Positions 5,809 to 64,000 of a stretch of DNA of 64,000 bases are shown here, piece after piece (the stretch's first letter is position 1; every line of letters starts with the position of its first letter). Position numbers and translations under genes: made by a program. The notes beneath the pieces are model-generated. The model was not told where the DNA came from. It did not search any database and worked only from the letters and a program-made list of their open reading frames with translations. Source of the stretch: Vermamoeba vermiformis (Eukaryota); assembly GCA_045837725.1 (NCBI GenBank), contig JBEWZL010000030.1, positions 1 through 64,000 of the forward strand, in the 5' to 3' direction.

Positions 5809-10664
<4,856 letters not shown>

Positions 10665-33400: not shown

Positions 33401-36400
33401 GCACGATCTGGTTTTGGATGGCGATAAGTTGCGCAACATTTGGGCTCGTCGTGCTTCTCAATTTGGTGCTCAATCGAATATGAGTCCTAGCAACACCAAT
33501 GTTAATGCTCAAAATATGCTTGCTAATCGATCTCGTTCGAACGCGCCTCACAGCCCTTCGGATCCAGACCTCGCTCAAGCATCCGCTCTTGTTATCGAGG
33601 CAGTAAGTCTAATTAATATTCAAAGTGCTTTTAATTCACGGCTAACGCTCTAACAGGCGGACAAGTCGCTGCAAAAGCTTCAAAAGACCATCTTGCCGCT
33701 ACACGTGGTCGAACATCAACGTCTAGAACAACTAGAGATGTCAGCGCAGAAATCAGAAGTCAAGCGCAAGAGATTGCAAAAGATGGAAGAGGACGAAGAT
33801 AGTATGCAACGCTCTCCTACTCGTGTTAAAGGCAAGAACTCGCCTTACATGTCGTATGCATTAATAACATTTTCATCCAATAGCCGTCCCTGCCGTTGTT
33901 CTCAACCGCAAGAGAATTATTGGCGACGAGTCTGACGAAGAAGACCATTACTCTCGCAATCCGTTTATCGCTGACGAGGCCTCAGAGGCCGAAGAAGTGC
34001 CTGACCAAGAGTGCGAGCGAAGCTTCGAGCAGTACTTGAGCGATGGTGAAGCTGAACAAGAGCGCACAGCGATTGATTTGCACTCTGAAGAGGCGAGTGA
34101 AGACAACGAGCCGAATCAGTATGAAAAGGACAGCTTTGTTGCCTCGGAAGATGAAGACGAGTACGATGAGGACGAAGAAGATGCGTATGCTACTGCTCAC
34201 GATGCGGATGAAGATGATTATGATGAAGAAGATGAGGAGATCAATCGTCAGATCCGCAACTCAGTGCCGCTCATGATGGCTCAGGTCGAAGAGGAAGAAG
34301 TTGTTGATTTGACTGGCCCTATTGACGTCAATGATGTCGCTCAAGCCCTTCGTACCATGCGCATTGAAGATGCACCCGAGCATGAAGAAGACGAAGAGGA
34401 TTACGAAGAGTGTGAGGACTACGATCAACAGTACAGCGACGAAGAGTCTGAGCACGAGGACGATGTCATCGTTGATGTAGACTCACCCGTACTCGCTCCA
34501 CGTAATGTAGCTCGTGTCAATGACGAGCAACGTGATGTAGCTACGAATGAAGTGCACGAGACCGTTGAACAAGACGAAGAAGGGGATGAGGCGGCTTACA
34601 ACCAAGAGGATGAAGCTTGTGTGGATCTCAATGCAGAAGACGTCAAAGAGGTCGTTGACATGAATGAAGCGTTTATGGAAAGTGACCATGAAGACCACGA
34701 CAACGATTTTGCTAATGAAGAAGATCAGCAAGAAGATGAGGCTCGCGAATCTGACGAGGAGAGCGAGGACCATCACGATCATGACGCAAAGAGTGTTAGT
34801 GAGAAGGTCGTAGAAGAAGTAGCAGAACAAGTGGCTGAAAAGAAGCCTGTGCCCATTAAAACTGTCGAAGAGCCAGCTGATGACGACTTTGGCATTGATG
34901 ACTTCTCACTCGTTGATGATCTTCATTTGACTGAAGCCGCTCGCAAGTCCTTGCCTCAATCTGCGGAACGTGTTGCTACTGCTGCTGTTGTTGCTGCTGA
35001 AGTCGAGCAGGAAAAGCCCAAGACTCGCGAGGTTGATTTGCCAATCGAAGATGCTGTTGCCGAGACCGAGGAAACTGAAGCTGAGAACGTCGTCGAAGAG
35101 CACAGCGAAGAACAATCGCCAGTTGAAGAGGTGACTAAAGAGGCCCAAGCACCCGAAGAAGAGGACTCTGAAGTGGATTCTGAACAGGATTCCGAGAAGT
35201 CTCCAGAGCGCAGCTTTGCTCCTCGCAAGTCTGTGTTTGGTGACGCTGATCTTGGCAACTTCTTGTTGAGTCAAGTGATCTCCGCACCACGCGACGATGT
35301 CAACGAAGACAGCGAGAGTGAAGAAGAGGACGAGGCTAGTGTCGATGAGACGTTTGAAGACGTGCCTGTCTACGACTATCGCCGTAATGTATTGAGCGGT
35401 GATGAGGACGCTGATGTAGTGAGCGATGAAGAAGTTGAAGAAGACGAAGCTGAACTGGAAGATGAGAACCAATCAGATGATGACGAAGACATGAAACGTG
35501 AAGAGGAGATTAAGGCTCTGTTAGAGCGCATCGATATCAACGCTGCTGCAGTGCAAATAGACGAAGAGAAAGTTGACAATAGCCGAACCGATCGATGACG
35601 AAGACAACGGCAGCGAGGGAGAACAGATCCACGATGACGAACAAGGTCACGAAGAGGAGCACGTCAGCAACGAGCACGAAGATGTTGTTGAAGAAGAACA
35701 AGACGCTGACCTCGACAACACCGTTCAAGATGAACATCACACTGAAGATGAGTGCGATGATGCATGCGATGGTCACGAGGATGAAATTGCTCGTGAGGCT
35801 GAGGCAGACGTTGAGAGTGAGGATGAAGTTGCGCCGAAGAAGGCAACCAACAAGCGACGAGTCATTGATGATTCTGAAAGCGACGCTGGTAACTTCAGTT
35901 TTGAAGGGTACATCACCGGCGAAGAGGAAGATCCGGAGTTGTCCGAAGAATCTCCAGTCAAGCCTGTTGTAAAGAAGAACAAAGACAAGGTCAAGACCTA
36001 CAAAAAAGAAAAGAAGGAGAAGAAGGTTGCTGCAATTGAGATTTCCGACGACGAAGAAGAGCAGATCTGGGATCAGACCCCGAAAATTAAGAAATTAGTG
36101 CGAAAGACCTCTGTCGAAGACTGTAAGCATTCAAAACAATATTATAAACGTTTATATTAACATTGGCTTGTATAGTAAAGGAACCCAAGTCCGCCCAAAA
36201 AGTCGTCCCAAAGAGTTCAACTAAACTTTGGGAGACTAACCGCCGCGAGTTCTTAATGAACAAGGAGGTCATTGCCAAACAATTGTTCGATGAGTTTAAT
36301 ACTCGAATCTTTGGTGGCAAGATGGACAAGCTGGATCTTGTTTGGAGCAAGGCTTTGACTAACTGCGCCGGCAAATACTGCGTGACTATCGAGGTACAAA

Positions 36401-38214: not shown

Positions 38215-39918
38215 TTAAAAATTGAGCAAACAAGCAAGGCCAACTGCAAGTACGGTGTAGCCAAGGCGAGAAGCACTCGATTTAGAGGTACTGGACGGCG
38301 CTTTAGTACCGCTTGGAGCAGCTACTGGTGCAGAGATTGGAGAGCTACTGGAGAGACTGACACAGCGGTGCAGGTAAAACCATCCCCTTCGTAACCCTGA
38401 TTGCAGGTGCAGGTTGGACTCACTTGTCCGACGTTCTCTGAGCAGGTAGCGTGTTCGGAGCACGGATTGTATGTTTGGGAGCACTGTGGGAAGTCCATCA
38501 CGTACACACCACCGCTTTTGTCTGCAATGACCCAAAGACTGCCCGGTGCAAATGTGCGAGTGTAAGCTAGTGTAGCCAGGAGTAGTCGCAGCATCGGGTT
38601 GGTACAACACATTCGCCACTGCAGACTTTGTGAGAGTATCGTTGTAGTACGCCCATTCCTGCGATGTAATGTTGTACAGCCACAGGAAGGGGACACCATC
38701 TTGATATGAGTACGAGATCCACAGCGCCAAGATGTTGTTGCCTGCGTACGTCATTGAGCTGTATGCGCCGCAGTCTGGTCGATGCTCTGCTGAGAAGACA
38801 CCAGGAGGCAGAGTGCTCACAGTCGCGGTGCAGCCACTGGTGAGACTCGAGACGTTCTTGTTGCCACTAATGTACTGCCAGCCAGATGAGCGGTTAAACA
38901 TCCACAAGTCATCTACGGTTTCACCTCCGTAGAGCCTAATCAATGAGTGTTACTACTTGGTATTCGAATGGACTGATCGTCAACTTTACCAGAGATTGTA
39001 ATTCGGGTCCACGGCTGTAAGTGGAGCCCAACGTTGAAATGGCGTCACTTCAAACGCATCCGCGAAGGTCGGGTCGCCAGTTACTATCGGCTCTAATAGT
39101 CCTGCTACAAAGGCCCACATCTTTGAGGTAACGTTGTAGCGCCACAGATCGGGATATAGTGGCCCCCCAATATTGTCGTCGTAACTACTAAACAGCCAAA
39201 GCGAGTTATCATCAGGCGTGTACCAATAACCAGAGCCTCGTTTACATCCGGGATAGTTCGCTGAGTTCTCAACGCCTTTTTCGACGGAATTCAACGAGCC
39301 ATCTCCAACGGTTAGCTCCGTCCAAGTCTGGGAGCCAGGCGAGAACTTCCAAAAGTCGCAGTTGTTTAATCCTCCGTAGATGTAGACGTTATCGTCTTTG
39401 TCGATCCACATCACATTGTCGGCGCGTACTGCGGGTCCTGCAGAGTCAAGTGCAGTCCAAGCGAGAGTCCAATTTCGAGCGGTACGATCAAAGTAGCGCA
39501 AAAACGCTGGTATTCCTTTACAACCTAATTTTGACTTCGTCAGGCGAGATCAAAAAAGTTTTGCCGATAAAATTATTGGCAACAAGTTATTATTCATATG
39601 GTAGTAAAATTATTCTACGAAACTGTTGCATTAAATTGTCCAAGCTAATTTACGGTTTAACTTTATTAAATTTGCAAATATTTGGAGCACCGCTCCGCCG
39701 AAGCTTAATTAAATAAACCTAATTGACGGCTTACCTCTTCCGGTAAATTGCCAAGGTCTTCCTTGCGAATCAGTTGCCAGAGAAAGGAGATCATAACCAG
39801 ATGTGATTAAAGGGTCCGAACAGTCTCCAGCTTCATCAGCCGGAAAATAAGCCGTCCATTGCCCCGCTTGTGAGGCGGACAAAACAGCTAATAGCGCCAA
39901 TACAATGAGAGCTTTCAT
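38215..39918 (-). CDS. Secreted kelch-type beta-propeller + EGF-like domain + probable GPI signal (one +1 frameshift near 38570)
   Basis: Signal MKALIVLALLAVLSASQA; kelch-like VYIYGG..DFWKF, LWLF..DLWRYN, LYGG..DDLWMF; EGF CSEHATC...CTCNQGYEGDGFTC; Ser-rich spacer and hydrophobic C-terminus. Confidence 0.8.
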
Positions 39919-40484
39919 GTTGTTGTGCACAAGCTTTGCTAATATTAGAAATGGTTTGCCATGGCAAAAAAAAACGGCAACAACATTTTTAGCTAAAAAC
40001 CGCGCAATAAGAAAAATTAGTTTCATTTACCCCGTCATAAAAGCGATATAATAGGGTTAAATGGTTAAATGAAGAGTCCCTGGACAAAGAAGATTAGATA
40101 ACACGATAATCGTCGGGTCTGAACTCCGGTTTGCCGCACATGTTCTCATCCAGAAAAGCTAAGTACGTACGTTATTAGAATTTGGAAAATAATATATGCG
40201 TGCGTAGATTCTAGTAGTAGTATAGTAAGCTTTATCGTGTTCGACTTAAGCCATCGATCCTGCACAGAAACGCAATTTAGGTGAAGTAATATCCCTGTCT
40301 CTTTCCGTACCACCTGATTGCGAAAAATACGTTAGCACACGAGGCTCAAATATTATTTTCGTTTTTTTTCACTTATTATAATTACACGAACCAGATCTGG
40401 TTACTCTTGTGAGTTCTGTTGTTTTTCTCGAACGCAAGCTCTTAAAAGCTTAGGGTGGGTGAATTATTAGCTAATATCGTGCGA

Positions 40485-41788: not shown

Positions 41789-44700
41789 TTACATATCAAG
41801 AGCAAATTCAATCTTTTTGACCAATGACGTGATTTCTGAACTGTGAGCCCATCGTTCATGAACGCGCAATACAAGTTCTCGTTGAATGTCAGTCACGTGC
41901 TTGTCTTTGCGCGCATCTAAAAGCTCGATCTCCTTCAATAACTTCTCCAACATTTTTCCGACGAGTTGGATCGGGGCTTCGGGGTGCATTTCATCGACAA
42001 ATTTGTACACGTAGATGCTCGATACGGTAAGTGTCACATCGCCGGACTCCAAAGTGACATCTGTCAAGAACTCTCGGTCCTCAGATTCGATCGATTTGAT
42101 CACGCCGTAATAAAATTTGTCGTCGGCTTTGTTCTTCCATGCAACGGTCTCATCAACTGTCAGCGGCAATAACGGACTGAATGTCAATAACTGCTTTTGT
42201 TCGTTCGTCAATGGCGTGCCGTAGGACTTGTTTAACATGCCATTGGTGAAATTTCCATCGCCCTTTTGATCGATCTTGTAATGATTCAGCACGCTCAAGA
42301 TGTCACTAAGAACATGTTTTAGTAAAATATTTTCAAGCTACCAGAAAATTTTTGATCGCGTACCTTGGATCGCAGGTGAGGATGGACTGCAACGGCAACA
42401 AGTTCCTTAAGAAGTGACCCAAGTAACGGTTGATTTCAATGACTAACAGCTCTTCGTATTTGACGGCTTTGGGAAGCTTTTCAATCAAATAGATTGTCTT
42501 GGTGTGTTCATCCAACAAACAATTCGTGCCTAAAAAGCAATGGTTAGCCTGGGTATTGACATTTTGAGATAAAAAATCATACCTTTAGCGTCTTTAGTGA
42601 CATTGCGCTTGTTTCTCGTGTCAATGAACTGCGAGTGAATGGTCGGAACAATGACCACTTTGAACTCTTGTAATTGCATCACTTTTTTCTCCAATTTCTT
42701 GACTTCACGAGCCACGTCAAGCTTCTCGCTCTTTCTGCGCGTCAATTCGTGCATTGATATGCGCAACAGTCCTTCGCAGAATTGCGTGGCTGAAATTGTA
42801 GCGGTGAATTTTGCGGCCTCTGTCAAATTGACAGGCTGGATCTTGACATCTGGATGGAAAATCTCTTCGACAATCTCGCTCAGCGCTAACAAACGAAAGG
42901 TTTAGAATGACACGTGCATTAATGTCAAAAAGTGACACTTACGTTGAATGTGCATTTGTGACGCGATGAATTGAGAGACGTGTTTGTGGGCCAATGAGAA
43001 CTCTTCCATATTAATACGGTGATGCAACCAAGAGCTGTCATCGTAAATCAGTTCCGAGCACGGTTTCAACTTGTTGTGCGTGTCTGGTGCGAGAATGACG
43101 GGCACTGAAGCAGCGAAATATCGATCGTGATTTTCAGGCTGGAGAATTCTCAACTGACTGCAGTAGCGCAATATTCTAATTGTCAAGTCTAACTGATTAG
43201 GATTCAACGCGCTATGCTTCTTCTTGTCAGCCAGTTGCGTCAAGACATCGAGAAGGTGGTCAATGTCCGGCACAACTTTCGCGCCAGCGACTTTGAGGAG
43301 TTCTTCAAACTTGCTAAGTTTGCGTGGCACTCGGTAGAAGAACGGTCTGAAATCAGTCGCAGCGTTAGATGAGCTGTCGTTGTCTTGAGCATTGTTCTTG
43401 TGGAGCTTGAAGAACAATTGGCGTGGCAAGACGGCGAGACCCGACTCGTCAACCACGACACAAGCGATGTTGCCCAGTTGATCGCGAATAATCGAGACTA
43501 GGTCTTGATATTCTTTGCTCTTAGGGTCCTTCTTGGCTTCTTCTAGACGTTCAGCGATGTACTTGAACGCGGCCTTGAGATCTTTTTGCAACAGTTTGAC
43601 CGACTTGTATTTGAATCGATCACCTTGCACCATCAAATTGCTGATGTGTTGAATGACTTTTGTGACACTAGGAGGCTCTAAGGACCACACTGCACGAACA
43701 GCTTCGTTGGGCACAATCTCCGGATGGAATATTGGCGAGACCGTCCAAATAATGCTGCGGTACTCGGGCAAGGCAATATCGTCAATGCGCTGAAGAATGA
43801 CGTTGGTAGGGTCCATTGGATCATTGTCAGTCACGTTAGTCATGCGCGGGTCCCACTGACACGGCACGAATTGAATGTTCTTGGCCTTGTTGATGAACGA
43901 GTGAATGAATGATCTGAACGCAGCTTCAGCATCGCGCTGTGTCTTGCGATTGATCTCTTTGTTGCGCTGCTTCTTTCTATTGCTGGCCACAACATCGTCC
44001 GTCAAGCTCTCGTAGACTTTCAAGCCGTCCTCGGTGCCAAGGTCCTTCAGCATCTTCAAGTCATTGAAGCCCTTTGAGACGTGAGTCTGATAGAACAGTT
44101 GAATCAGTTCGAGCAAACGACGCAGCTGCACGACTGAGAGTGACGGCAGAGCGGAGTATTTGAGCGCTGCGGACAAAAGGTGCTCTTCGGCCAAAGTCGT
44201 GTTGAGACCGAAATTGTCGCGCAAGAAACTGATCCATTCTTTCGACGAGATTCTGACGTCCGGGAAGTTCTCGGGGGTGTCGGAGTACAAGAACGCAAAG
44301 ACTGCATTCGTTGGATCGTGCAAAAATATGCCTCGTCGTGCAATACCAGCTGTATATAAAACGATTATTAGTTAACTTTTAAAGGTCAAAAATGGATCCG
44401 TACCTCTGGTCGGGATGAATTCGAACACAGACATCAGGTCATCAAAGTGCTTGATCTCGTTCTTCAAAATAACCATGTTGTTCTTGATGAACTCGAGCAT
44501 CTTAATCTGGTTCTGCGGTGATAGAGCTTTGATAGTTGGGCAAAACATATTTCTTCAAGAAGTGACCTCTATTAGCCGCTGAAATTCCGAGGCACGCGTA
44601 GAGCTGTTGCAGCTTTGGTTTGTACTTCAAGAACTTGGAGTTCAAGCTCGTTGAAGGCACGTCAGGTGGCATCATGAAGTACTCATCTTGAGGGGCCACG

Positions 44701-47700
44701 AAGCGGGTTTTGCCTAGTCGAACATTAGTATATTTCATTTATATAGATGTTAAGGGACATACCGTATTCTTCGAGTTGTTCACGGAGCTCAGGCGGAATG
44801 TTTCGGAACAATTTGGGATGGTCACAAATAACGTCCGCGCACAAGTTGACCAAGTAGTCAGGATTGGTCTCGGACTCTGTCTCGAACAACGGCAATCTCT
44901 TGAGGATCTTGGCCTCCATGGCAATGCGTCTGTCGATGAGTTAGCGTTATTTACTTTTTTGGAAATGACTACGTACTCAATCGAGACGGAGGTGTTGAGA
45001 GTCTCCAGCAAGAAACTTCTATCTTGACTCGTCAAATTATCACAGTTCTCTGGCTTGACGCGTCTCAGGGCCAACAAAATGTCCTCTGGCTTGATGTTCA
45101 AACACATCTTTCTAGTCTCGTTTGTCGGAGGACAGATGTCAGTGTTCAAGAACAACGCTTGCAGCTTGGTCATAATGTCAAAGAGACGTGCTTTCGGGCC
45201 CTTGAATAACTCCATCTCTGAAGGCGGAATGAAGATGTACTCGGCTCTACCACGACTCACGAGCTTGTAGTCTTCAGTGGGGATAATTGGCCAGTCGACG
45301 GGCAATGACGACCATTTGCCCTTTGCAACACTCCAGAACTTGCGCAGCCAAGCCTCGGAGATATCTATCACACGTTAGTCATCGAAAATATCTTCGTCAT
45401 TAGTTTCGAACTTACCGTTGAAATCCCAATTAATTTCTTCTCGTCCGCGCCACTCTTTGGGAAGTATCAAATGGAAGTTCTCCATGAACTCGGTGACACC
45501 AAAGTTCACTACAGAAGCTGGCGACAGATCTGCTTTTCGTGAGAGCTTGAAGTCTCGCAGAACCTTGCTGACATCAATGTTGATCAACGTGCGCTTGAAC
45601 GCCGGCAAGTTTTCAATGAGCTCGATGATGGTGTTGATGTCAGTGTCAATCATATACTTCAATTGACCACCGAAAATAGTGATGGCGTTGTTGTGCAAGC
45701 AACACAAAGGCAGACCAACGAGACCTTGAATGATCGCGTGAGTCTCTTCTTCGTCCAATTGACTCGTGTCCCAGTTCTGTCTCTTTTTCGCCTTCTGCAG
45801 CTTGAGCTTTTGATTCTTGCTCGTCTGTCTCTTGAAATCCGTTTCGTCCTTGACAGCAGGCAGAACAGTTTCAGTCTTGGATGACTCGAGACAATAGTTC
45901 AATAGGACCAGCGCGCTGTCCTTAGAGTTGATGACAAACTCGTCGTAGGTCCAGTAAGTCTTTCCTGATTCAGCTGCCATCTTTTTCAAGAAGTTTCGAA
46001 GTTTCAACGGTGAGAGCTGTTGAATTTCATTCACCGAGTGGTACTTGAACTGTTGATAAATGACCTCGGGAGCATCAGCCAAGGGGAACTTGATTTGCTT
46101 GAGAATATCCACGAGCTTAGCTGTGTTCTTATGCAAGATCAATTCGTTCGGGAAGACCGACTCGAACGGAGCAATGAGCGTGTTGGCATCCATGAACGAG
46201 AACAAGCAGGCTTGTTTTGCGAGTATTTGGTAGAAGGATTGGATCATCGGGTGCCAGAACTGATCGATCGGAGTCGCTGTGGTGGACGGCCAGAAGTCAT
46301 AGTACTGATTCTTTTTCACTTCACCGCGAGCGATGCAGCCTTGCAGACCCTTGATAAAGTGGACGTAGGCACCGAGTACAGAGGTATCACGCAGCACCCG
46401 GTTCCATTCGGCCTCTTCTGTGGTGATAAGACCGTTCTTCTCCGGCGTCAAGTCAAAGTTGGAATGGATTTGGACGGGCAAGCCAGTAGCTATGTCCAAG
46501 GGCACATAGTAGAACAACTTGCCGTTAGACGTTTCCTTTTCCTCCTTTTCTTCCTTCTCTTGAGCTTTCTTCTTGTTACTGTACTCGCGCTGATCAAGCT
46601 CTTTGGTGTCTGAGGGTAACTTCGCTGCAACGATCGAGTAAGGCAAACGCAAGCCACTGATCTTGGTCTTGGATGTCAATATCTTGTTGACGTAGCTGAC
46701 GTCAAAGTACTGTGACATCAACCACCTTTCGTTGACTGATTCGCCTTCAGCTCTCTTAGTGACCTTCATGTTCACGATCTGAGTTTCTTTTTGCAATTCA
46801 AGCGGCACGTCGAGCTTTCGCTTGATGGGATTGACAGCAACGATCTTTTTGACAGCGCGCTTCTTTTTCTTAGGCCTCTTTTGCTTATCGCCAGGCTCGG
46901 GTTCGTTAGTGTTATTATTGTTGTTATTGGGATCTTCAACGGTGATCTCCTCTTCGTCGTTATCATCCAACGTGGTCAGCTGCGTGTCAATGTACGACGC
47001 GATGTCTTTTGGTTTGCCACGGAACTTCTCAAGTTCAGGAGTGAAATCTGCACGAGTGAATTAGTTTAGTTTTTAATTAGTTTAGGACTTACTCTCAATT
47101 TCAGCGATAAACCAAGGCTTTAGATTGTTCTCTTCGTTTTGGTAGGTCTCAATTTTCTTGACACGGTTTAAGAATGCCAAATGCGAGGTCGCTTGACCCA
47201 TAAAACGGCCAATCAACTTGCGCACCTTGTCTACTGAAACAATCGTGCCAGGAAGACGGGAGTCTTTGCCCTTCAAAACTTGCCGAAGAGGTACTCTGAA
47301 GAGCGTGCCAGGGAAGTATCCCTTTGACACATCGCAGCCCAAGAAGTTGAACGTTGCAAATTGGTCGGGGAAGAGTGACACAATGTTGGAGTTCAAGTTG
47401 AAGCGGACATACGGGTGATGGGCGTTTGATCCAGGAACGTGCGATGTGTAAGCATCACAGAAGACGGCGTCTAAAAGTCCGTTAGCATTATAAAAATTTA
47501 GATTGAAAAACTGCTTACAGTTGCCGCTGACGAAGCTGGGAAGGTCGGACAAATGGAACAAGGTGCTGAAACCAATGCCAAGTTTTCCAATTTTGGTAAT
47601 GTCTCCACGCTTGGCACTTCTGCCAGGAGTACAAATGTTTTCAAAGTCCTCGGGTCTGAATGTGGCGTTGTTGTAAATGTACAACGCAGGTCCCTGGTGC

Positions 47701-50700
47701 TCCTTCATCTTGGGACCGAACAACGAGTTGTCATTGTGCTGCGTGTCGTCGAGAATAACAACGAATTCACTGGCACCAGCATCGTCGGCATTTTGAATCA
47801 TCTCCGTCAATATTCTGGATTGAGAACGAGTGTGAAGGGCCTCAGAGATCTTGCCGAGTTTTTTGCTCACACTTGCATCGCCATCCTGGTCCTTGATTGG
47901 GTCAATCGCATTCGTGATTACCACATGACTGCAAGGTCTGATGCCGAGAGCCTTTGCAATTTGATTCGGAATGGACGGATGAATGATTTGGTGATTCTCG
48001 GGTGTCTTGGCTTCGAGTGACTTAACCCACGGCATGTCGTCGTAAACGAGCTTTGTAGGTGACACAAGATGTCCACTTTGACTGGGCAAGACCAAACCAT
48101 TCGGAATATCTTTGGCTGACTCGATACTTTCAGATAACAAGGTCACAACTGAAAGGCTGAGTTTGAGTTCGCGCTCGTTAAGTGGCGTCCTGTTGTTCGC
48201 TCTGGTGGCCAATAAGTCTTTCAAAATGCCAACCAAGTCTTCAGGTTCGACGTAATTCTTGAAGTCGAGAGTGCTGAATAGGTTGGGATATTTCTTCAAG
48301 TCTCTTGGGCACGAGAATATGAACGGAGACAAGTCGATGGACAATTCTCGAACAATTTGAGTCTTCTTCGCAAAATAAGGAGCGACCCAAATCCACTTGC
48401 AATCTTCATCAAGGAGCTCATCGAAGGCGTTCTTTGTGATCTGCCCAGTGCTGAGTGCGTTGTTCAAAAACTCGTTGACACGGTCGCTAATCGTTGAAAT
48501 GAACGATGAAAGTTTCGAACCACTCTCGCCTTCAATGTTGAAAGCAACAGCTGTGCTCGCTAATTTCTTGGTGTGACTCACAACGACTTCAACGTTCGGA
48601 GGGTTGACCCAGTCAAATGTCTTGATGAAGTAGGGGTTCTTCGGGTGATAGTCGAGGATGGCACGACTGCCGCAGCTGAGCAGGGCATCACGTTGCAAAC
48701 AAGTCACGTTCGGGGCAACAAGCTGAGGCTCTCCAACAAACCAGAAGGCTTGATTGAACGCAGAGAGCACGTCATTTGCTACCACATTGAGTGAGTTGGC
48801 CAGGTAGTGTGTTGGTGAAATGCTTGGCAACCATTCCGTCGCTGACAACTCCTTGGTGAACACATCAAAGTCCTCCGCTGATAATTCAGTTTCCAGCATG
48901 CTGAAGTTACGATCCAAGTAAGCGCACAAGCTCTTCGCTCGCAACAGTGCTGCTTGCTTGTCTTGTTTGTAGTATGAAGGCACTGACTTGATTCTGTCGA
49001 TGAAATCTTTCACGCCAAGCTGCTTCTTCAGGCCAAGCTTTCTTAAGCTCGCAAGCATGGCAGGATCTTTGTACGGTCCAGTAGGGAACACAGGTTCGAA
49101 CGTGAACATGTGATTCATGTCTGTTTCTTCGGGGTCAAACAAATAACGAGGCGGACAAAGTCTTCCGTTGCTGTCTGGAATAAATTCCAAGTTGCTGAAG
49201 AAATCCACAATGTCACCAGCAGTGTCTTCCTTGATAATGGCATTCAAGTCTTCGAGCACATAAATCATCACTTGGTCTCGGTGTTCTTGAGTAAATGTGC
49301 TCAGTTTCTCGGTCAAATAAGACTTGTAGAACTCTGGGCGCTTCAGCACTGATATTTCCAAGAACTCCAACAGGTATTTGTCGTGTGGCGAGTCACGCTT
49401 GAGCAAGTACTCCGAAGTGATGTCGTGCGGAATGTTTTCGGGTGGGCACGCGTACTGAGTCTTGTCAATAGCTGCAAATCGATGTTCTTTCGAGAAGGTC
49501 TCGAAGATTGGAAGTTGCTTGATGTTGTCTCGTTGAGCTGCAGAGTTGAGCACCTTGTTTTCAAACCACTCATACTTGGAGAAGAATCGCCTGAGATTGT
49601 GAAATGTTAATGTCAACTAGCGCAAAGGTTTAATGGACTTACTTGAGAGCAATCTTTTCATCGGCAGACAAGACCGCAAATAGCTCCGTAGGTGATTTGT
49701 TCGCGTTCTTGATGCACTGAGTCAACGCGTTCAAAACACCAGCTGCGTCACCAGCAGGGAAGATGTTGCTCAAGATTTTGTTATTGAGTGTGATTTCCGA
49801 TTCATCGACGACATAACAGTGAAGCTTGGCCAAGGCGGTGATGACGTCATTGGACAAACTTGAGTGCGATAGCAAGCACGGCGTGTTAGGGTGTAGCGAG
49901 CACAAGCGTTGACCCATGCACGGTACTAGAGGCCATTGTTCGAAATCAGTCTCGGGCTTGTCGTTGCCGTTCATCGTAAGGAATGTCAAGTACTGCCAGA
50001 AACGCTCGAGCCAATCTTTTGACACGACATTCTGATTCCACTCAACGAGATACGAGTTCTTCCACTCTTTTGGAAGCACGTGCTCGAACAATTGGCTGAC
50101 AGTCTTGGGATCCACAATAGTCACATTGACCACTTCTCGCAGCTCACTTGACTTGAGCTCGGCGTTGATAGTTGGCGACACGATGTTACTGTCAACGAAC
50201 ATTGACAAGTGATTCGGAAACAACGACATTTCTAAATCAGTTGCGAGGTAAATATGAGCCTTGTTCCTGCTCTCAAACTTCGAGAAACTTTTGTCTGCCA
50301 TTGGCACCAGGTTGATTCCCTACTTTTGTGTCAGCTTCAAACCAAATTAGTTAACTTTAAACTAACGTACCTGAAGGTCTTCGAAGTTTCTATCGGCCAA
50401 GCAGTATTCGAGAAGATGCACAACTAAACTTCGATTCTTTTGATACATGGCGGGCACGGTGGTCCAATTAGTCTTCAAGATTTTTCGAACCAATGAAGGA
50501 CTAACAAATTTCACGGTGTTGCCGAGAGCGTGACTGAATGCTTCGAACAAACCAGGAGTGACTTCTACTACGGGAATGTTCTCGTCAATCAGTGCTTGAA
50601 AGACGGTCTTGAATACTGCAGGCGGGACAGCAGTGCTATGCACATCTTCATTTCTATATACAAATACGGCCTCTGAAGCGGAAACCCATTGTCCGCCGTT

Positions 50701-53109
50701 TGATGGACTGTACAAAACCTGAAAACAAAAAATTCAGTACAAAAAAGTCGGATCCGTACTGGTCTTACCTTTGCTTGGTTCTTAATCAAATAGCTATACA
50801 CACTTTCAGACAAATCGTTCCAATAAGAGTTAGTGGACTTGATGTTCGGCCATTGCTCGTAGAATTGAATCAAATACTCGAGTTGATTGTTCTTCGCGAT
50901 AGAAATGGCGGTCTGTTCGATCAAAGCAGCGTAAGCAGATCCGACAACATCTTGTTTGAGTCTATTGTTCCAATCTACTTTCTTCTTGCCTTCGCCGCTC
51001 AAATCTTCACCGTGCCAGACATCTCTTCTGTTCAGTGAAAGTTCGAAGCAGCCGTTAACATGCACGGGCAATCCTGTCTCAGTCGGTAGCGGCAGAAAGC
51101 AGAAAACTCTTCCTTTGACTATTCAATCGTTAATTTAAATCTAATTATTAGTTGTTGGAATTGTACGAACCATTTTCTTTGGTGTAAATGGATTTGGTTG
51201 CGACACCACCCCACGGCACCAATCGCAGTCCTTGAGCTGCTTTGAACTCTTGCATGGCCATCTCGCTGGACTTGCCACCGCCAATCTGGTTACATAACAT
51301 CCATGATTCGTTGTTGACCTGTGTGCCGTCTTTGACTTCAACATCGAGCGGGATGACGTAACTCTTTTCTTTGCCGGCCATTGTTTCCAAGTAAGACAAG
51401 CCTTGCGAAACACTGTCGTACATGACCTTTCGATCAGTTCTAACGGTGTTAAGAGTGATTGGATTTTGTTTTTCAGCGTTCTTAATGACCACGCTGTAGT
51501 AGTGCTTTGGCTCAGCGTCGCCTTTGTCCCACGTGTAAAGTTCAACGGACTCGACAAACTTCAAAAACAAGAGCACTGTTGAGCCTTCTTTTTTGAACGA
51601 AGCAAACAGCTCTTCAACTTTTTCTTCGGTGTACGGCAACTTTGAAATTTGTGAAAAGGGACTGACTTCATCCGTGCGCAACGGAAATCGGAACTAACAA
51701 CAATGTTATTATACATGCCCTTACTCGTAAGATTATATTGATCTTACAATAGTGCCGTTGAAAAATGATTTCATGTCGCAGTTGAGCATTTTGTACGGCG
51801 CGACTTGGTCTTCAAAAATTGTTGTCACTTCAGGACACTCTAAGTAGTCCCATCTATTATCGTCGACAATTAGAATAGGCTATTATAATATATAGCTACT
51901 TTTGAAGCGTACCTTTTACCACATGATTGAGTTTCACCGGGTAAGTAACGTGCGTGCGGATCTAGCATCACGAGATGCTTACCGGATACAAAGCTGATAT
52001 AATGAATTAGTATTTAATGATCGTTTATATGGCGTATGGTATTAATTTACCTCGGCAAGTCGGTGATGTGATAAATTGAGTTGAAACCAATACCGAACCG
52101 ACCAGTCTTGCCCAACTCATTTTTCTTTCTGCTCGAGCCCAGTCTTCGAATACTTTCAAAATCTTTTTCTTCGAAAACACCCGAGTTGTACGCATACAAC
52201 GCTAGCAAACAGAAGTGTCAAACTTTGACAGCAAATTTAAGTTCGTTTGTAGAGCTTACCAGGGCCTTGGAATAACTTCATTCCATCTGTAAATAGTTTC
52301 TTTGACGGAAATGATCTCCGATCAAAGACGAATTTGACGTGTGTCGCGCGAGCATCATCGGCGTTTTGAAGCAACTCTTTGAGAATTTGACTGTGTGATT
52401 CAAGAGTTGGTTAGCACGTGCGAATAAGATGGAGTTGTTACGTAGTATCGTGAGTAGCGAAATAATATGAATAATTGCACGTGAAACACAAAGAACGGAT
52501 CGAGTTTTTTGAGAATTCCATAAAAGATAGAAAAATTTACCTTCCGTCCGGGTATTGGCGCAGAATATTGGTAATTCTAACGGTGAGGGGTTCAAATTGA
52601 CTGAATTCTTCGCCTTCAAGTAGCTTAAGACGGTTGGGAGCCAAACCTGAAGAAAAAAACGAAAAAAATTAATCAAAAATCTTACTGGCTTGAATACACC
52701 ATTAAACTCTTTTTAACATGAATACTTGTTTAAAATTACTGAGCGGCTATTTTTAGCATTTTTTCCAAGCTCAGAATAAAAATTCAATTTCACAAGTTGG
52801 CTTACCTTGACTTCCCAAACTCGTCATTGAGACGTTAATAATGTTATATATCGTTCCTGTCGCAGGATCAACGGTGAAAGGCAAATTGGTCACGTATCTA
52901 ACTTGGCCATCTACAGTGAAGGAGTATTTATACCGTCCAGGAGGCATAGACAACTCTGTTGACCATTTATCACCATTTTTTTGTAATTTAGTTGGCTTAA
53001 ACTCGTTCCAAGAGCCAGTAATCAAGACTTCTTGAATACTAGTCTTTGGTTGATCAGCATCTGGCTCCCAGGAGAACGAGACAGGCACCAAATGCAATTC
53101 CTGAGTCAT
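41789..53109 (-). CDS. Sacsin-like giant protein (two HSP90-like SRR modules) with N-terminal CBM48/AMPK-beta glycogen-binding domain (one +1 frameshift near 44528)
   Basis: [71 protein letters not shown]; second module EMIQNADDAGA, IGKLGIGF; exon 1 ITGSWNEF...PPGRYKYSFTVDG. Confidence 0.9.
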
Positions 53110-53278
53110 ATGTGGTAATAATATTAATCAAATAAGTGTGATAACAATCGCAACTGAACCTTTCGTGTCCACAGAAGTAAAAGTTGGTCAAACTTTGTCA
53201 AATGCTTTTTTGTCTTGGAAGCATTGAACTCAGCGTAGAATTTCTATTATCTCATACAAGTTGACACTATAATTAACT
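53110..53278. promoter_or_regulatory. Probable bidirectional promoter
   Basis: Only 169 bp separate the divergent start codons at 53109(-) and 53279(+). Confidence 0.5.
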
Positions 53279-54589
53279 ATGGATCAACCTAAACGACTTG
53301 GCTGCGGCACTCCTGGTATGATCACGCGACAAAACGCGATCTGTTCGACTTACGCGTGCTTTGAAATTAATTAGTACTAATATTATTATGCTCTATGTTG
53401 ATATTTAATTTATAAGGCTGCCCTTGCGGTGCTTCTTGCGCTTGCGGAAGCGGATGCACTTGCGCTCAACGAAAACAGCAACAAAACCCAATGGTAATTA
53501 TCAAAATAATTTATAATTAATTTTCACGTTATATTCAATATTTGGGATTTATTTGGATTTATGCAATGCATTTTCCAATTGATCGGAGTTTATTTCATTT
53601 ATGTGATTGCTGACAACGAATTAACGTGCCTATTGCAGAATCGACCTGGTCCTGGTCAGCCTATGCCAAGAATGAACAATAATAATCAAGGTCAGCAAGG
53701 TTGCTTAATTCAATAACAAATTTTCCTTTTCGATCCAAAATTATATGTTCACCAAAAAATTGTAAATATGTGAAGAACTGTTTGCGAACAAACGAGCTTG
53801 TTAATATTCCTTTATACTGATCGAAATAAACGTTACAACGTTTACAATCCATTCATGATCCGATCTCAGCGCTGAATTTTCTTTCTCCTGCAGACGAGAA
53901 AATAGTTCCTCATCTGTTGAAGATATTAGAAGATATATGGGAGAAAGAGCCTTACGGTAAAGGTACACCACTGCTTAAGATTTAAAGCCCTCGACTTTTA
54001 TTCATGAAACACGAAACAGATCTCAAAGCCAAATTGAAAGTTGAAGAAATGAGACCTGGCTGCATGTCTTGCGTATTAGAAGTTGACGAAGACTTTAGGA
54101 ACCTTTACGATACACTACACGGCGGAGCTTACATTTATTTAGCTGGTACGCATCTGAATTTTCTTGAGCAACTGATCTGTTACATGACCTTCTATATTTG
54201 GCTATTCGATTCGAAGTCATTATACACTTCCTTTCATTGTTTTTTTAATATTATAGCATCACATAGATATGGTTAGTTCGATGGCAATCATCGCGTCAGA
54301 TCCAGAGCATCGCTTCAGCGTCAGCATTGAGCTGGAGAATACCTTCCTCAAACCAGCCCCTGTTGGCACTAAAGTATTCATAGTGAGCAATATTCTACGA
54401 ATGGGCAAGGCTGTCGCTACGGCTGAAGTCAGATTTACCGATCAGGTACGCTTTTCATCTCTCTCTCTGCTATCAACCTTTACGAGCATCAGATTGAAAA
54501 TATTTCTAATACTTTTTGCACGTTAGGCGACCGGAGAATTACTCGGCTACGCGAAACAAACAAAATACTTTTTGAAATCCAAAGCGTAA
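53279..54589 (+). CDS. PaaI/ACOT13-type hotdog thioesterase with N-terminal metallothionein-like Cys cluster
   Basis: Seven phase-compatible exons. CGTPGCPCGASCACGSGCTC, then NLYDTLHGGAYIYLAD, SVSIELENTFLKPAPVG, RMGK. Confidence 0.8.
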
Positions 54590-54862
54590 TAGTGTTCTTA
54601 CTTGTAATAAATAAATTTATCATTGTACCAACCGATGTCTAGATTATGAGCTTATAAAGACAAGGTCCTTCACGGAGACGGCTCGGAGATCCGTTTTTTG
54701 CGAAATTTCCATTTTTTCTGCGCGGTGACGAAACACTCAAAGGCGCGCGACCTCCGTTTTTTTTTAATCAACAACACGCATCAACAACAAGCGACAATTA
54801 AACCTCATTCTAAAGGATCAGGTTGATTTGGGAAAGTAACCGATTTTCAACCGCATCTGAAA

Positions 54863-57847
54863 ATGTTTGAAGGCATCGTTGCTTACTTCCTGTCTCGCTT
54901 ACTAGGCGAGTACTTTGAAGGCATCAGCAAGGAAAATATTAAATTTTCATTATCTGGAGATTTGCTGTTGAGAAATTTGGTGATCAAGGTAAGATCTTTA
55001 ATTAACCAGCTTGATTCGCTAAATTATATAATAACTATGCTGTATATATACTGTTTTGATACATCAAAATTGATTTTTTTTAATTACACAAGTAATTTCA
55101 TTATTTCCGATCAGCCACAATTTGCATTACGGACGGAAGATAATCATAATAATCTGATAGACTCATTATTTGCTTTTTTATTTAATATTGCCAAGATTAT
55201 TGGTTAAATTACGTAATAATTTCAAACCCTGTTGATTCCGCGTGCGAGCTCCGTTTCTCCTTCAGGAGCATCTTTACTACGAGGTCTTACGCGACAAAAT
55301 CATTAATAAATACTAACATAAACATTTAGAGAACTCTTATTGCTAGTTGGGGCTTTCCTGCAACGATTCGAGCTGGATTTGTGAGTCAATTTCGTTTAGT
55401 CGTGCCATGGACTTCATTAAATAGCAAGCCCTCGATCTTGGAGTTAGATGATGTATATATAATATTAAGCCCTCATTATAAGCTTGGAGATGTAAGTTGA
55501 ATGGTTTACATCGTGGATTTGATCCCACCGCATCTGAGATCCCATTTCTAACTTTCGTAATTTTTTTAGTACTCGCATGAACGTGCAGAGGCGCTTATTC
55601 AAGAGAATAAACAACGACTACTTAAGGTCTGGGAAATGACCAAGGATGCTAATGCCCAAGCACACGATCCTGATGTTAAGAAAGAATCAACTGATAGCGA
55701 TCAAACGTTTGCACAAAGAATCTTTGCAAAAATTTTACGAAATCTACAGCTATATATTCGACGCATTCATATTAGATACGAAGACGATCAAATAGACCCG
55801 GATGTACGCAGCAAAATTTCGTCCTCCTTACGATTATTTTATTTAATTATTTTTATAGCGCCCATTTGCAGTCGGAATTACATTGGCACAAGTTGAGCGG
55901 GAAAATGAAGGCGGAAAAATCGACAAACACTCCCCAATCATTTCCAAGGTTGTTAGACTGACGGATCTCGCGGTCTATTGGGACACGAATAACTATCCCT
56001 TGAAATTCGACTCTTTAACCGAGATGTGCGCTCAAATGAGGGACTTGGTGCGTATAATATACATCAATGTCGTATATATCTTGCTAATTCTAAGTCAGAT
56101 CTACACCGAAGAAAACAAGGTCAAGCACTCGTTCATGTTGAACCCAATGAGCGGGCACATTAAGGTACTATCACTTTGCACGATAATAATATGACTTCTT
56201 ATTAATAAGTACTACTATACAGATCGATTTCAACAAAGACAAGTCAAACACATCGTTGCCGCAGTACAGCACTGAAATTAATATCGAAGCGATGGATTGG
56301 AACTGGGATGAAATTCAATTTGCAGATAATGTAAATATTGGTGTATTCTGGGATAGACATTTTAGGCAAATCAAAGTAAGTGCATTGAAATTTCAGCAAA
56401 CGAATGGCTAATATGAAATTCTTTTAGTACCGAAAGCATAGACCTCCTAGCGCGGAAATTAACGCAAAAAGTCTTTGGGATTTTGCAAGTAAGACACGCC
56501 GTTATGGGATAATATATTATAGTACTTAACTCATATGTACAGTTGATTGTGTTCGAGCGGATCGAAAAGAAAAAACTGATCCGTGGCGTTGGGAAAATAT
56601 TAAAAAGAAATGTGCGTTGCGTAAAGAATATATCGAAATTTACAAGAAGAAAAAAATGAAAAAGAAACTCGATCAAGAACAAAAGAAACGATTAGAAGAA
56701 ATCGAAAAGATTTTGACTTACGAAGACATTGCTCTGTAAGTCCCAAATATATTCATATTAATATATATTACACCTCCTAATATTATATTATAGATATCGA
56801 TGCTTGGCTGGTGCCACAGTGCGCTACCAGAAAGAGCTCAAAAAAGGAAATTGGTTCACTGGCATGTTTTCTTCAAAAGATTCAAAACAAAAGAAACAAC
56901 AAGTACGTAACTATTTTAATATACCTTATTATTGTTAATTCTAATGCTATTTTTAGCTCCTCGCAAATCCACCGCCAATGATTTTGAAGCCCGATGAACG
57001 ACGCGAAATTTTCTATCTTTACGGCATTGATTTTGTCGATTCAAGGCAAGGAAAACATACTGAGGTTAGTAATATGATTTATTATCGTACTTAGACCAGT
57101 TAATAATGTTTTTGAAATGTAGATCTTGATGTACAAAATGGACTTCTTTTTCAAACGTCTCAGCTTCAATCTTTTCACTGAAAATCAGAAGCCGATTGGC
57201 TCGTTGTTAATGAAGAACTTTAAGAGCTATTCAAGTTATTATCAGCAAGACGCTAAAGTAAGTTGAAACTTCGATCTCGCTACCGTACGCGATCTGCTTT
57301 TGATTGATACTGATATGATTACTATTCGTAGCATAAATTAGAGCTCAAGTCTGCAGTGCTTAAAGATCATTTCAGCAAGAAAAGAATTATGTCAAGGCTG
57401 CATAAGAAAAACAAAGTGTTGGAGAGCGAAGTCGACGTTAAATTCAGAGCGCTGTACGACTACGACGTGAAGATGACCATTAGACCGTTCAAGTTTGTGT
57501 ATAATTTAGAGTTCTTAACGAGAGTTGGTAAGTTAACGGAGGTGGATCCACATCCAGTACGCGAAAATTAATTTTAATTTTTTTTCCAGTAAATTTCTGG
57601 GTCGCACCAAAGACGAAGTATAATCAAGAACGTATGGAAGGAAGACAACGAAGACGAGAAGAGTATTCAACGCTGTACAAGTGGTCTGGTTTGGATCTGA
57701 TCGTCGCGAAACCGACCGTTGTGATTGCTCCTTCGATGATGAATAGGACTCTTAATAACACTCAAGTGGTGCATGCACCTGTAAGTATTATTGATAGCAA
57801 TAGTAATGAATATCTCTAACGCTCTTTCTTTTTTTTAGCTCGATTAA
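54863..57847 (+). CDS. Short VPS13-like protein (Chorein_N plus following N-terminal repeats only)
   Basis: MFEGIVAYFLSRLLGEYFEG, VPWTSL, KILRNLQLYIRRIHIRYED, KVVRLTDLAVYWD, YRKHRP...SLWDFA, LEEIEKILTYEDI. Stop inferred at 57845-57847. Confidence 0.8.
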
Positions 57848-61158: not shown

Positions 61159-64000
61159 TTATTGCTCTTGGTTGGTATTGTTGGTGTTGACCAAGCTCGC
61201 TTGATACATCTTGACGGCCTCTTCTTTGGCCTTTCTGAAGGTCAACGAGACACGACGGCCACGTGGGATGTCAATGCCAGCAAAGGTGTCAATGCGACGG
61301 GCCTCAATGCCGTGTGACCACTGATACCGCGCCTCGCCTTGCAACACAACGGCGGATCTGGGCTCGAGAAAGACCGCTTCAGTCTTGGCTGTTTGATAGT
61401 GCTTGAAGTCCATCACGGCGCCGCTCTCGAGTGTGATGGAAATGACGCAGCCTTCAAAGCTGGCCTTGTGATCGATGTGCGGGCTGATGCCTTGACCCGG
61501 CGTGTACTCGTTGATGATCACTTGGTCTGCAACAAACGGGGCCAATTTGTCCGCGTGCAATCGTTCAGCGAGGAACGCGAGCCACTCTGGCAACTGTCCC
61601 AAGAACTTTAAGCGTGGCGCATCAATTTCTTGTTCCTCGCTGGATCGGGAATTAGTCAATTAAAGTGAGCTACGTCGAGTACTGTTGGTACTTACGGTGC
61701 GAAGTAATCGTATTCCCAGCCGTAATGTTGAGTTCTGCGGGCCAAACGCATGTCCCACTCCTGTGCGTCAACAACCTGCAAGATTTTCTTCTCTTCCAAA
61801 TGCGACAGCCATTCAGGCACGTAGCCGAGACCAGGCACTTTAATCTCGGACAAATTGTTCAAACTCGTCACGGGCTTGGGTCTGACAGCTGATTTCTTCA
61901 AGTTCTCGACAACAGGCGCCGCAGCGGCCTTGGCAGCTTGTTGCTTCTCGTTAGCAATGGCCGACATCTTGAAGATCTTGGCTGGCGTGACCAACGTGGG
62001 GAATTTCAAGTCGAAATTTCCGGTCAAGAACACGGAGTTCAAGAAGAAGACCAAGCTGTAAATGTCATCGGTGTCGTACAAGGGTCTCAAGTGCGCATCA
62101 ATCTCCCTGATCAAAGTGATCATCTCGTCAGCCAGGGCGTTGCGCTTGAGGTGATAAGGACTGCCCCAGAACTTGTCGCTGGCCTTGGTCTGTTGCGTCA
62201 ACATCAGCATTTGCTTGTGCAATGTATTGACACGCTTCTGCAGCTCTTTTGACTTGTCATCTGTCATAGCAATACGTTCAATAGTCTAAGGGGACAATGT
62301 TAGTGGAAGTGTCAACGAGGCACGTGTTCATCGTGTCAATGACTTACGGCTTTCTTGTAGGCCTGGACTTGCTCCAATGCACGAATGTGAGGGAACAACA
62401 AAACTTCGAACTTGCGCAATGCTGCAACAAGTTTTTGAAGTCTGACTTCGCTGGTCTGATCGTTGTACCATTCAAAGTACAGCGTGTTCGTGGCCAAGAA
62501 TTGACGTGTCAAGTCCAAGAAGGGCTTGAGCTCGGCTTTGGCAGGGAAGTCGGCCTTATCAACCTCGTCCATGTTTTGTTTCAAGGACGCAATCCACTTT
62601 TGTTCGTCAGGCGAGCTGGTGAAAATGAACTTGGGCAAGTGCTTCGTGAACAAATCGTTGCCAGGCGCAATCTGAATAAGATTGAACAGCGCTTGAGTGA
62701 CTGTCTCGTTGTTTTTGGTCAACTCGTGAATGGTGTTCGTCAAACAAGTCTCCCAGTGGTAGTACTTAGGGTCCACGAAGAAATCAAACGCCGTGCCCAA
62801 GTTAAGCGTCGAGGCTATGACCGACTCCATAGGGTTCAACAGCACACCTATCGCATGTTAGCATGATATTAGGGTGTAATATAAATGTGATTAAGTACCA
62901 TCAACATAGGCACCAATGTGCTCGTCACGACCCATGTAAGGGTTCAAGAATTGAATGTGCGTGCGATAATCGTTCACGGGTGTGTTGTCCCAAATCACGA
63001 GACGACGTTGAGGACCGAAAAATCCTCGTGTTCTCTTCAACAGATCCAAGCTGATCGTCTTGCTGATGGTTGTTTCGCCGGTCCACAAGAACACGACACG
63101 CGGATCCATCTTTGAAACACCGTCAGAATTACTTAGTAACGAATATAATAGGTTATCTTACCTTCTCTTTGAACTCAGTCAAATAGTTCACAGCAGGCAC
63201 TTCAGCGTTGTTTTTGAACTTGCACGAGTAATAAGTAGGGCACGTGGTCCATTCAATAGACTTCAATTCAGCCTTCTCAGTCAAGGTCTTGTTGGCAATG
63301 AATGCGTCGAAGTACTTGATGAGCTTGTTCATTGTGAAGGCTTGGGCGTCCACGAGACTAGAGAAGTCTTCCGGCAAGTCGAGTCCAATGTCATCGAACA
63401 GAATTGTGATGTGATTGCAGCCAATCTCTTCGTAGACCTGATGAAGCTTGCTAACCATGCACGACATTAGAAACAACCCTTATTGAATTCGTATTACAAC
63501 AAGGTTAACTTACGCGCAGAGTGCATCAAAATCTTTCACGTCACCGTGTTTAATGCCCCACGGATGAATGGCCATGTTGAAAGCAATGTTTTGTTGCTTA
63601 GAATAGGCGACTAAATCCTTAAACTCTGTTCGAATAGATTAGTACTACTGCCGCATAACATTCGATAATTAGACGGTACCTTTCACGAGTTCCTTCGGGA
63701 ACAAGTCACGCCACTTGACGCGATGATAAGGGTCCTCTTTCGGTGCCCAAATATAGTAATTGGCTTTCTTCTTGCTCATCCACGCGATCAGCCTCTTGCG
63801 GTTGGTCATGGTGTAAGGCTGACCGTAGTACCCTTCGACCACACCGACAGTTCTGACGGGATAAGTCTTTGACAAGTCAGTAGTGTCATTCCTAAAATGG
63901 ACAATTAGAGCACGGTCACGTGATGGTCGTTGATCGATCAATGAGTGACACTTACTTTGCGATTTGATCGAAGTCTATGAACTGGCTCAATTGTTCGCCA
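61159..64000 (-). CDS. O-GlcNAcase-like GH84 glycosidase fused to a C-terminal AlkB-family 2OG-Fe(II) dioxygenase (5' end lies outside the window)
   Basis: GH84: GVVEGYYGQP, YIWAPKEDPYHR, ILFDDI, CPTYY, LWTG, IWDNTPVNDY, LLNPM. AlkB: RRTQHYGWEYDY, DQVIINEYTPGQGISPHID, EARYQWSHGI, RRVSLTFR. Joined in phase 0 across intron 62287-62347. Confidence 0.85.

Follow-up and report, generated by a model that had tools for sequence, protein, structure and literature searches.

Two described systems lie closest to the locus analysed here. Sacsins (human SACS, Pfam family SACS, PF25794, and the RING sacsins of plants and oomycetes) are built from repeated GHKL/Hsp90-like modules. Swappable adaptor domains have been described on some of them, a UBL in vertebrate sacsin and a DEATH domain in sacsins of sponge and other animals (PMC3710099). 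The other system is the carbohydrate-binding domain of the AMPK/SNF1/SnRK1 beta subunits (CBM48, PF16561, PDB 1Z0M and 2LU3). In AMPK-beta the residues W100, K126, W133 and N150 are critical for glycogen binding (PMC4032982). The exchanges W100G and K126Q abolish binding and W133L lowers it (PMC6274970), and Ala or Gly at W100, K126, W133, L146 or T148 markedly reduces it (PMC2642990). The same domain also makes glycogen-independent protein contacts, for example with debranching enzyme (PMC6274970).

The DNA analysed is a stretch of 64,000 nucleotides of Vermamoeba vermiformis contig JBEWZL010000030.1 (the window). The host is an intron-rich eukaryote, and its assembly comprises 43.3 Mb in 309 contigs. 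Within the window, a CBM48-family domain is spliced onto a sacsin-like ATPase. As in the UBL- and DEATH-sacsins, a small folded domain stands ahead of repeat 1 in one lineage; unlike theirs, the added domain comes from a carbohydrate-binding family, and no such description was found. The features of the gene are as follows.

41789..53109, minus strand: whole CBM-sacsin gene; 20 exons, about 3,371 residues with the break read as X
52806..53109, minus strand: exon 1; start codon and complete AMPK1_CBM/CBM48-fold domain, residues 1-101, with pocket positions F37, S63, V70 and Y88, and T86 kept (Pfam, PDB alignment, AlphaFold model, Foldseek, VIA-align)
52647..52805, minus strand: intron 1; 159 nt, phase 1, GT..AG, with in-frame stops (run X2 joint 52644-52804, cut +2; the L014 intron has 130 nt and the same phase)
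52541..52646, minus strand: exon 2; short linker and usual sacsin start motif (homologue residues 3-11 align from model residue 111-114)
52260..52390, minus strand: exon 3; GHKL motif I of repeat 1, with catalytic Glu142 and the Asn, Asp and Ala kept (residue roles from PMC9880540)
50769..52646, minus strand: ATPase unit of sacsin repeat 1, spanning exons 2-8; GHKL domain with its glycine motif at residue 214, and Arg498/Arg499 in the loop that corresponds to that of Arg474
45416..47852, minus strand: sacsin repeat 2; GHKL motif kept with Glu1522 and Met replacing Leu, catalytic-loop arginines replaced by Lys1946 and Asn1947
44528..44531, minus strand: break that looks like a +1 frameshift (model residue 2533) and, if real, would create a premature stop codon at 44504-44502; none of the aligned runs covers it
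41789..42305, minus strand: last exon; homologous to the pre-RING tail of plant/oomycete sacsins, then an unmatched tail of about 60 residues and the stop

Gene structure, splicing and conservation of the fusion

The reading frame of the CBM-sacsin gene, as read from the sequence, opens with an ATG at 53109 on the minus strand. Exon 1 (53109-52806, 304 nt) ends with CAA G before the donor gtaag, and intron 1 (52805-52647, 159 nt, GT..AG) leads in phase 1 into exon 2, which begins at 52646. The exon, donor, intron and in-phase join are thus as the first-pass annotation had placed them. In the automatic gene model a 3-nt exon inside intron 1 and an intron around the frameshift were spurious, and both were dropped on the basis of run joints and homology.

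Four sequencing runs (X1, X2, X3 and X5) were aligned to the locus, X3 and X5 stemming from a more distant strain. No library type is recorded for X2, whose contigs skip 10 of the 19 modelled introns at canonical splice sites. Taking all runs together, joints were seen for 12 of the 19, in one case only approximately. One X2 contig skips exactly intron 1, with 120 nt matched on the exon-1 side and 104 nt in exon 2, and thereby spans the proposed junction 52806>52646. The contig shows six differences in all to the window, and therefore comes from a near strain. The next joint, 52390-52541, was found in X2 at a depth equal to that of the CBM junction. The fusion is expressed, the junction itself being covered by a single contig in one of the four runs; the other three runs had zero depth over 52408-53215.

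Conservation was analysed in an independent metagenome contig (L014), which carries exon 1, a different intron (130 nt) that interrupts the frame in the same phase, and exons 2-8, which have GT-AG ends and are free of stops. It was the locus with the fusion among the seven obtained in a second metagenome scan; the close relatives L012 and L013 end before exon 1 would be reached, and L015-L018 represent different sacsins whose available sequence contains no CBM. Between the window and L014 the CBM domain is 82% identical (dN 0.089, dS 0.83, dN/dS 0.11) and is under purifying selection. The ATPase (residues 102-330) is 96.5% identical, with a dN of 0.021 and a dN/dS of 0.014, its dS of 1.5 being near saturation.

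An independent small gene made up of the CBM exon, or a CBM exon expressed mainly without the sacsin part through intron retention, is highly improbable and already largely refuted. The first-pass annotation had itself named the contrary case, a CBM exon that terminates at 52771 with the sacsin starting elsewhere. Three database proteins of 106-128 residues with a stop shortly past the donor speak for such a gene. These proteins represent the same exon 1 in other assemblies (90-91% identity). They derive, however, from metagenome or assembly contigs, and their ends are donor read-through tails that are not conserved: the totals are 112, 106, 106, 128 and 120 residues among relatives, while the exon itself is conserved. 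The X2 contig skips the intron, and donor, acceptor and phase are preserved in L014. Moreover, the sacsin part has no alternative start ahead of its catalytic motif, because intron 1 contains no Met downstream of its last in-frame stop, the first Met past the junction is residue 174, beyond the ATPase motif at 142-150, and a divergent gene begins at 53279, 170 bp upstream of the CBM-sacsin start. The contrary case fails on these grounds. According to another reading, the frameshift near 44530 is genuine and the gene is defective in this strain, so that it yields a truncated product of 2,541 residues or is decaying, and only relatives have a functional fusion. The premature stop does stand in the assembled sequence, and the site is without read coverage: in the bin 44328-44731 the depth was nil in X1, X2 and X5 and 0.1 in X3. 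Against this, the frameshift is a single extra base beside a short A run, and homology between the internal repeats extends through it (E 1e-7). Four runs show splicing of downstream introns, and changes in the last exon relative to X3/X5 are mainly synonymous (23 synonymous and 10 non-synonymous codon changes; 36 of 40 differences displayed, out of 277). Since homology crosses the break, downstream introns are spliced and these changes are mostly synonymous, the frameshift is probably an assembly error. We consider a broken gene distinctly unlikely, a judgement independent of those on the four readings of the domain.

The divergent neighbour at 53279-53716 (plus strand) is a tiny three-exon gene of about 63 residues, arranged head-to-head with the CBM-sacsin gene with 170 bp between the start codons. 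Its intron 53315-53415 appeared as joints in three runs, and the gene is conserved in L014. We take its product to have a metallothionein-like Cys-x-Cys cluster and a CaaX-like C-terminal end. Further along the plus strand, a 4HBT thioesterase gene is followed by the start of a VPS13-like gene (53986-56200). On the other side, a Kelch-repeat protein is encoded at 38218-40026 (minus strand), in which inspection by eye suggests a signal peptide, an EGF-like Cys motif and a hydrophobic C-terminus. Two long ORFs of 646 and 576 residues (28331-30268 and 33868-35595, both plus strand) had no Pfam match. An ABC transporter (6078-10132, minus strand), a helicase C-terminal domain (32458-32856, plus strand) and 2OG-Fe(II) oxygenase exons (61162-61659, minus strand) are ordinary neighbours.

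Fold and pocket of the N-terminal domain

The assignment of exon 1 to the AMPK-beta/CBM48 family, proposed from the letters alone, is borne out by both sequence and fold. Exon 1 matched Pfam AMPK1_CBM (PF16561) over profile positions 2-81 of 85 with an E-value of 5.4e-17 and 62 bits (cut-off 26.8). The AlphaFold model is an eight-stranded sandwich with a pLDDT of 83.8. In VIA-align its best match was the AMPK-beta2 CBM (2LU3; Z 12.9, rmsd 2.9 over 92 residues), Foldseek returned AMPK-beta (E 6.7e-8), and an ESM Atlas search of the domain agreed with the AMPK-beta CBM family. As modelled, the domain has kept the beta-sandwich fold. Profile and structural Gly, Tyr and Phe positions are likewise shared with the AMPK/SNF1/SnRK1 beta domains; in AMPK-beta, however, the CBM is combined with an AMPKBI domain, whereas here it is joined to an ATPase. 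Pfam found no AMPKBI domain in the CBM-sacsin gene, and the AMPK-beta of the genome lies on contig C66.

The binding residues differ from those of AMPK-beta. Alignment to rat and human AMPK-beta1 gave W100 to F37, K126 to S63, W133 to V70, L146 to T84, T148 to T86 and N150 to Y88, and the regulatory S108 corresponds to Asn45. None of the four canonical pocket residues is kept. The sites of W133 and T148 drift further between the window and L014 (V70 to A, T86 to A), so that T148 is kept in the window and is Ala in the relative. In contrast, Y88 is invariant in five of five sequences, and F37 and W34 are likewise invariant in five of five relatives. For comparison, a pocket census was taken of 560 domain instances from 149 listed representatives; 141 of them, gapped at one of the four columns, were dropped. 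The remaining 419 domains, a background largely of multi-repeat proteins (those looked up being mostly bacterial) rather than a neutral eukaryotic sample, keep four residues in 322 cases, three in 64, two in 21, one in 12 and none in no case. Both stacking positions are aromatic in 454 of 540 homologous domains. Judged by alignment, the canonical alpha-glucan pocket is dismantled. The earlier proposal that the ATPase is targeted to glycogen or other alpha-glucan particles finds no support in a domain that keeps none of the four pocket residues, a state without a match among the 419 domains, and is weak. For annotation this is a caution: the Pfam name "glycogen recognition site" is earned here although the binding residues are absent.

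The genome contains other CBM loci, four of six of which keep all four pocket residues; the AMPK-beta CBM on contig C66 keeps one, and the match on contig C124 is partial. Contig C13 carries one of the intact paralogous CBMs. In a FastTree analysis (34 domains, about 80 columns) the window domain was placed beside the protist CBM P0248 and the degenerate AMPK-beta CBM of the same genome with an SH-like support of 0.93, in a tree too short and long-branched to fix the origin of the domain. The AMPK-beta gene (L006, 4709-6620, contig C66) encodes AMPK1_CBM and AMPKBI; its CBM carries Arg for K126, Ile for W133 and a hairpin insertion. AMPK in this organism may, on these residues, not be glycogen-sensing. 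Elsewhere, an intact CBM48 lies beside a tRNA_bind (PF01588) exon on contig C215, and another ends a long charged coiled coil on contig C123 (L008, 4193-5626, and L005, 3288-4117). These are possible further candidate fusions.

ATPase repeats and the distribution of the fusion

The sacsin-like part belongs to a product of about 3,370 residues with two GHKL ATPase repeats, whose motifs lie at residues 142 and 1522. Downstream exons matched Pfam SACS (PF25794) with E-values of 1.3e-13 and 1.3e-52, both repeats being above the cut-off. ATP binding has been assigned to Glu33, Leu34, Asn37, Asp40, Ala41 and Gly-x-Gly-Phe (Hsp90 numbering; PMC9880540). All of the residues listed are present in repeat 1. 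Repeat 2 keeps the Glu, Asn, Asp and Ala and the glycine motif, with Met in place of Leu. Arg498/Arg499 in the repeat 1 loop align with the bat-sacsin Arg predicted from the spacing in that paper (sacsin Arg474/1839/2893), and in repeat 2 Lys1946/Asn1947 stand where the catalytic arginines are expected. In terms of these residues, the first ATPase repeat is intact.

The protein thus shares with the sacsin family the repeated GHKL/Hsp90-like modules, the Glu-Leu-Asn-Asp-Ala motif, the glycine motif and the loop Arg of repeat 1. It differs in having two ATPase repeats and not three, in the lack of loop arginines in repeat 2, and in the exons scanned with Pfam giving no ubiquitin, DnaJ, HEPN or RING match; its final 300 residues contain no HPD motif. 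The vertebrate type (UBL, three repeats, DnaJ and HEPN) does not fit. A soybean homologue is colinear over about 1,960 residues (743 bits), and the tail is homologous to the pre-RING region of plant and oomycete sacsins (E about 1e-8), the ESM Atlas having yielded no usable match for the last exon.

Homologues from soybean, Pelomyxa and Phytophthora align with their residues 3-11 from model residue 111-114. Among the best 120 of 464 homologues, 51 begin at most 40 residues from the start of the sacsin part, an extension of 41-250 residues is present in 10 and a longer one in 59. Since so many of these 120 start close to that point, the CBM is an addition and not the replacement of a UBL. The first-pass annotation was right in calling the protein a sacsin-like, HSP90-like ATPase, as the SACS matches and GHKL repeats show, and in noting that animal sacsin has its UBL in the same slot; a UBL as the family norm did not hold up, given the 51 of 120 that begin within 40 residues of this point. 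The second sacsin of the genome (contig C78) and its relative L018 begin at the same point, without a cap. This second sacsin-like gene (L002 6700 to L003 7000) has two repeats, no CBM and a GC content of 0.49-0.51, and lies just downstream of an Ion_trans-like voltage-sensor gene.

The architecture was searched for from both sides. With the big sacsin exon as query, none of the best 120 of 464 matches carried PF16561, and phmmer with the CBM also found none in these 120; with exon 8 the count was 0 of 28. The CBM-sacsin combination, proposed for such a search by the first-pass annotation, was accordingly absent from 148 homologues, and the N-terminal CBM48-fold domain is peculiar to the window protein among them, the fusion being present again in L014. 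Starting from the CBM exon, 0 of 141 candidates scored among proteins of 178-2000 residues. Against all representatives, none of the 150 listed of 470 matches was both long and matched once N-terminally. A first metagenome scan with the CBM alignment gave 140 pattern matches, none confirmed. No publication linking sacsin with CBM48 or glycogen binding was found in a literature mostly without subscription journals. Hence, the CBM-sacsin architecture is apparently an undescribed variant within the sacsin family, restricted by lineage. Its wider relevance is limited in that it seems to occur in a single lineage of protists; as such searches miss intron-rich, unannotated genomes and cover unannotated protists poorly, the true range may be wider.

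Possible roles of the added domain

The reading towards which we lean, with modest confidence, is that the domain is a sugar-independent protein-docking module recruiting a working repeat 1 ATPase, with repeat 2 as scaffold. An exon with a eukaryotic AMPK-beta-type CBM48 would have been shuffled ahead of a sacsin-like gene that normally starts at the first ATPase repeat; shuffling is suggested because the exon equals the domain and the genome puts this module on several unrelated proteins. The domain would then act as a sugar-blind, Ig-like docking module, by analogy with the UBL- and DEATH-sacsins and with the AMPK-beta CBM, which makes protein contacts independent of glycogen. Through it the ATPase would be brought to a partner or location, the role that the UBL has in vertebrate sacsin and the DEATH domain in some animal sacsins. 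Repeat 1 is predicted to supply the Hsp90-like ATPase activity with which a bound client or complex is remodelled, and repeat 2, lacking the catalytic arginines, would serve as a nucleotide-binding or scaffolding repeat. The protein would have no Hsp70-recruiting or RNA-binding module of its own, because neither a J-domain nor HEPN was found. BTB and WW domains each occur on a single match among the homologues found with exon 8.

Some observations count against docking and favour a domain whose site, though remodelled or weakened, continues to bind glycogen or a different glucan, tethering the ATPase to glucan particles whose bound proteins it would remodel. F37 keeps position 100 aromatic, and N150 is replaced by a Tyr88 that does not vary; together the two may possibly form an altered aromatic platform standing in for the lost second tryptophan. 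Family and fold are those of glycogen-binding modules, and F37, W34 and Y88 do not vary in the relatives. Plant AKINbeta2, which lacks K126 and N150 and keeps both tryptophans, binds starch in vitro (PMC4032982), and models of algal starch-binding domains tolerate Tyr at W133 and Val at K126 (PMC4625611). Several intact CBM48 proteins in the genome suggest that glycogen-type ligands are probably present in the cell. Nevertheless, we regard glucan binding as rather doubtful: the W133 position is a non-aromatic Val or Ala and K126 is Ser, W133A and K126A each markedly lower glycogen binding in AMPK-beta (PMC2642990), most homologous domains keep both stacking aromatics, and no glycogen-metabolism gene was present among the window ORFs scanned. 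An intramolecular role, in which the domain packs on the first ATPase repeat as a cap that regulates its activity or stability and has no outside partner, seems unlikely. Only about 15 residues link the domain to the sacsin start, an interaction between CBM and kinase domain has been described in AMPK (PMC6274970), and the moderate selection (dN of 0.089 compared to 0.021 for the ATPase) is what would be expected of a folded cap. Most sacsins, including the second sacsin on contig C78 and L018, start uncapped, however, and the regulatory S108 of AMPK-beta is replaced by Asn45.

Conservation of the fusion extends at least to a relative whose synonymous divergence is about 0.8 or higher. Few clues exist to the substrates of the Hsp90-like repeats, and the accessory domains of non-vertebrate sacsins are among them. 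If remodelled glucan binding were true, an Hsp90-class ATPase would be hard-wired to a carbohydrate particle; this would be the first defined substrate location for any sacsin and would allow a direct test of what the repeats remodel. The domain of 101 residues is small and easily expressed, so that a chaperone tethered to carbohydrate could be told apart by assay from a CBM48 fold now serving protein docking.
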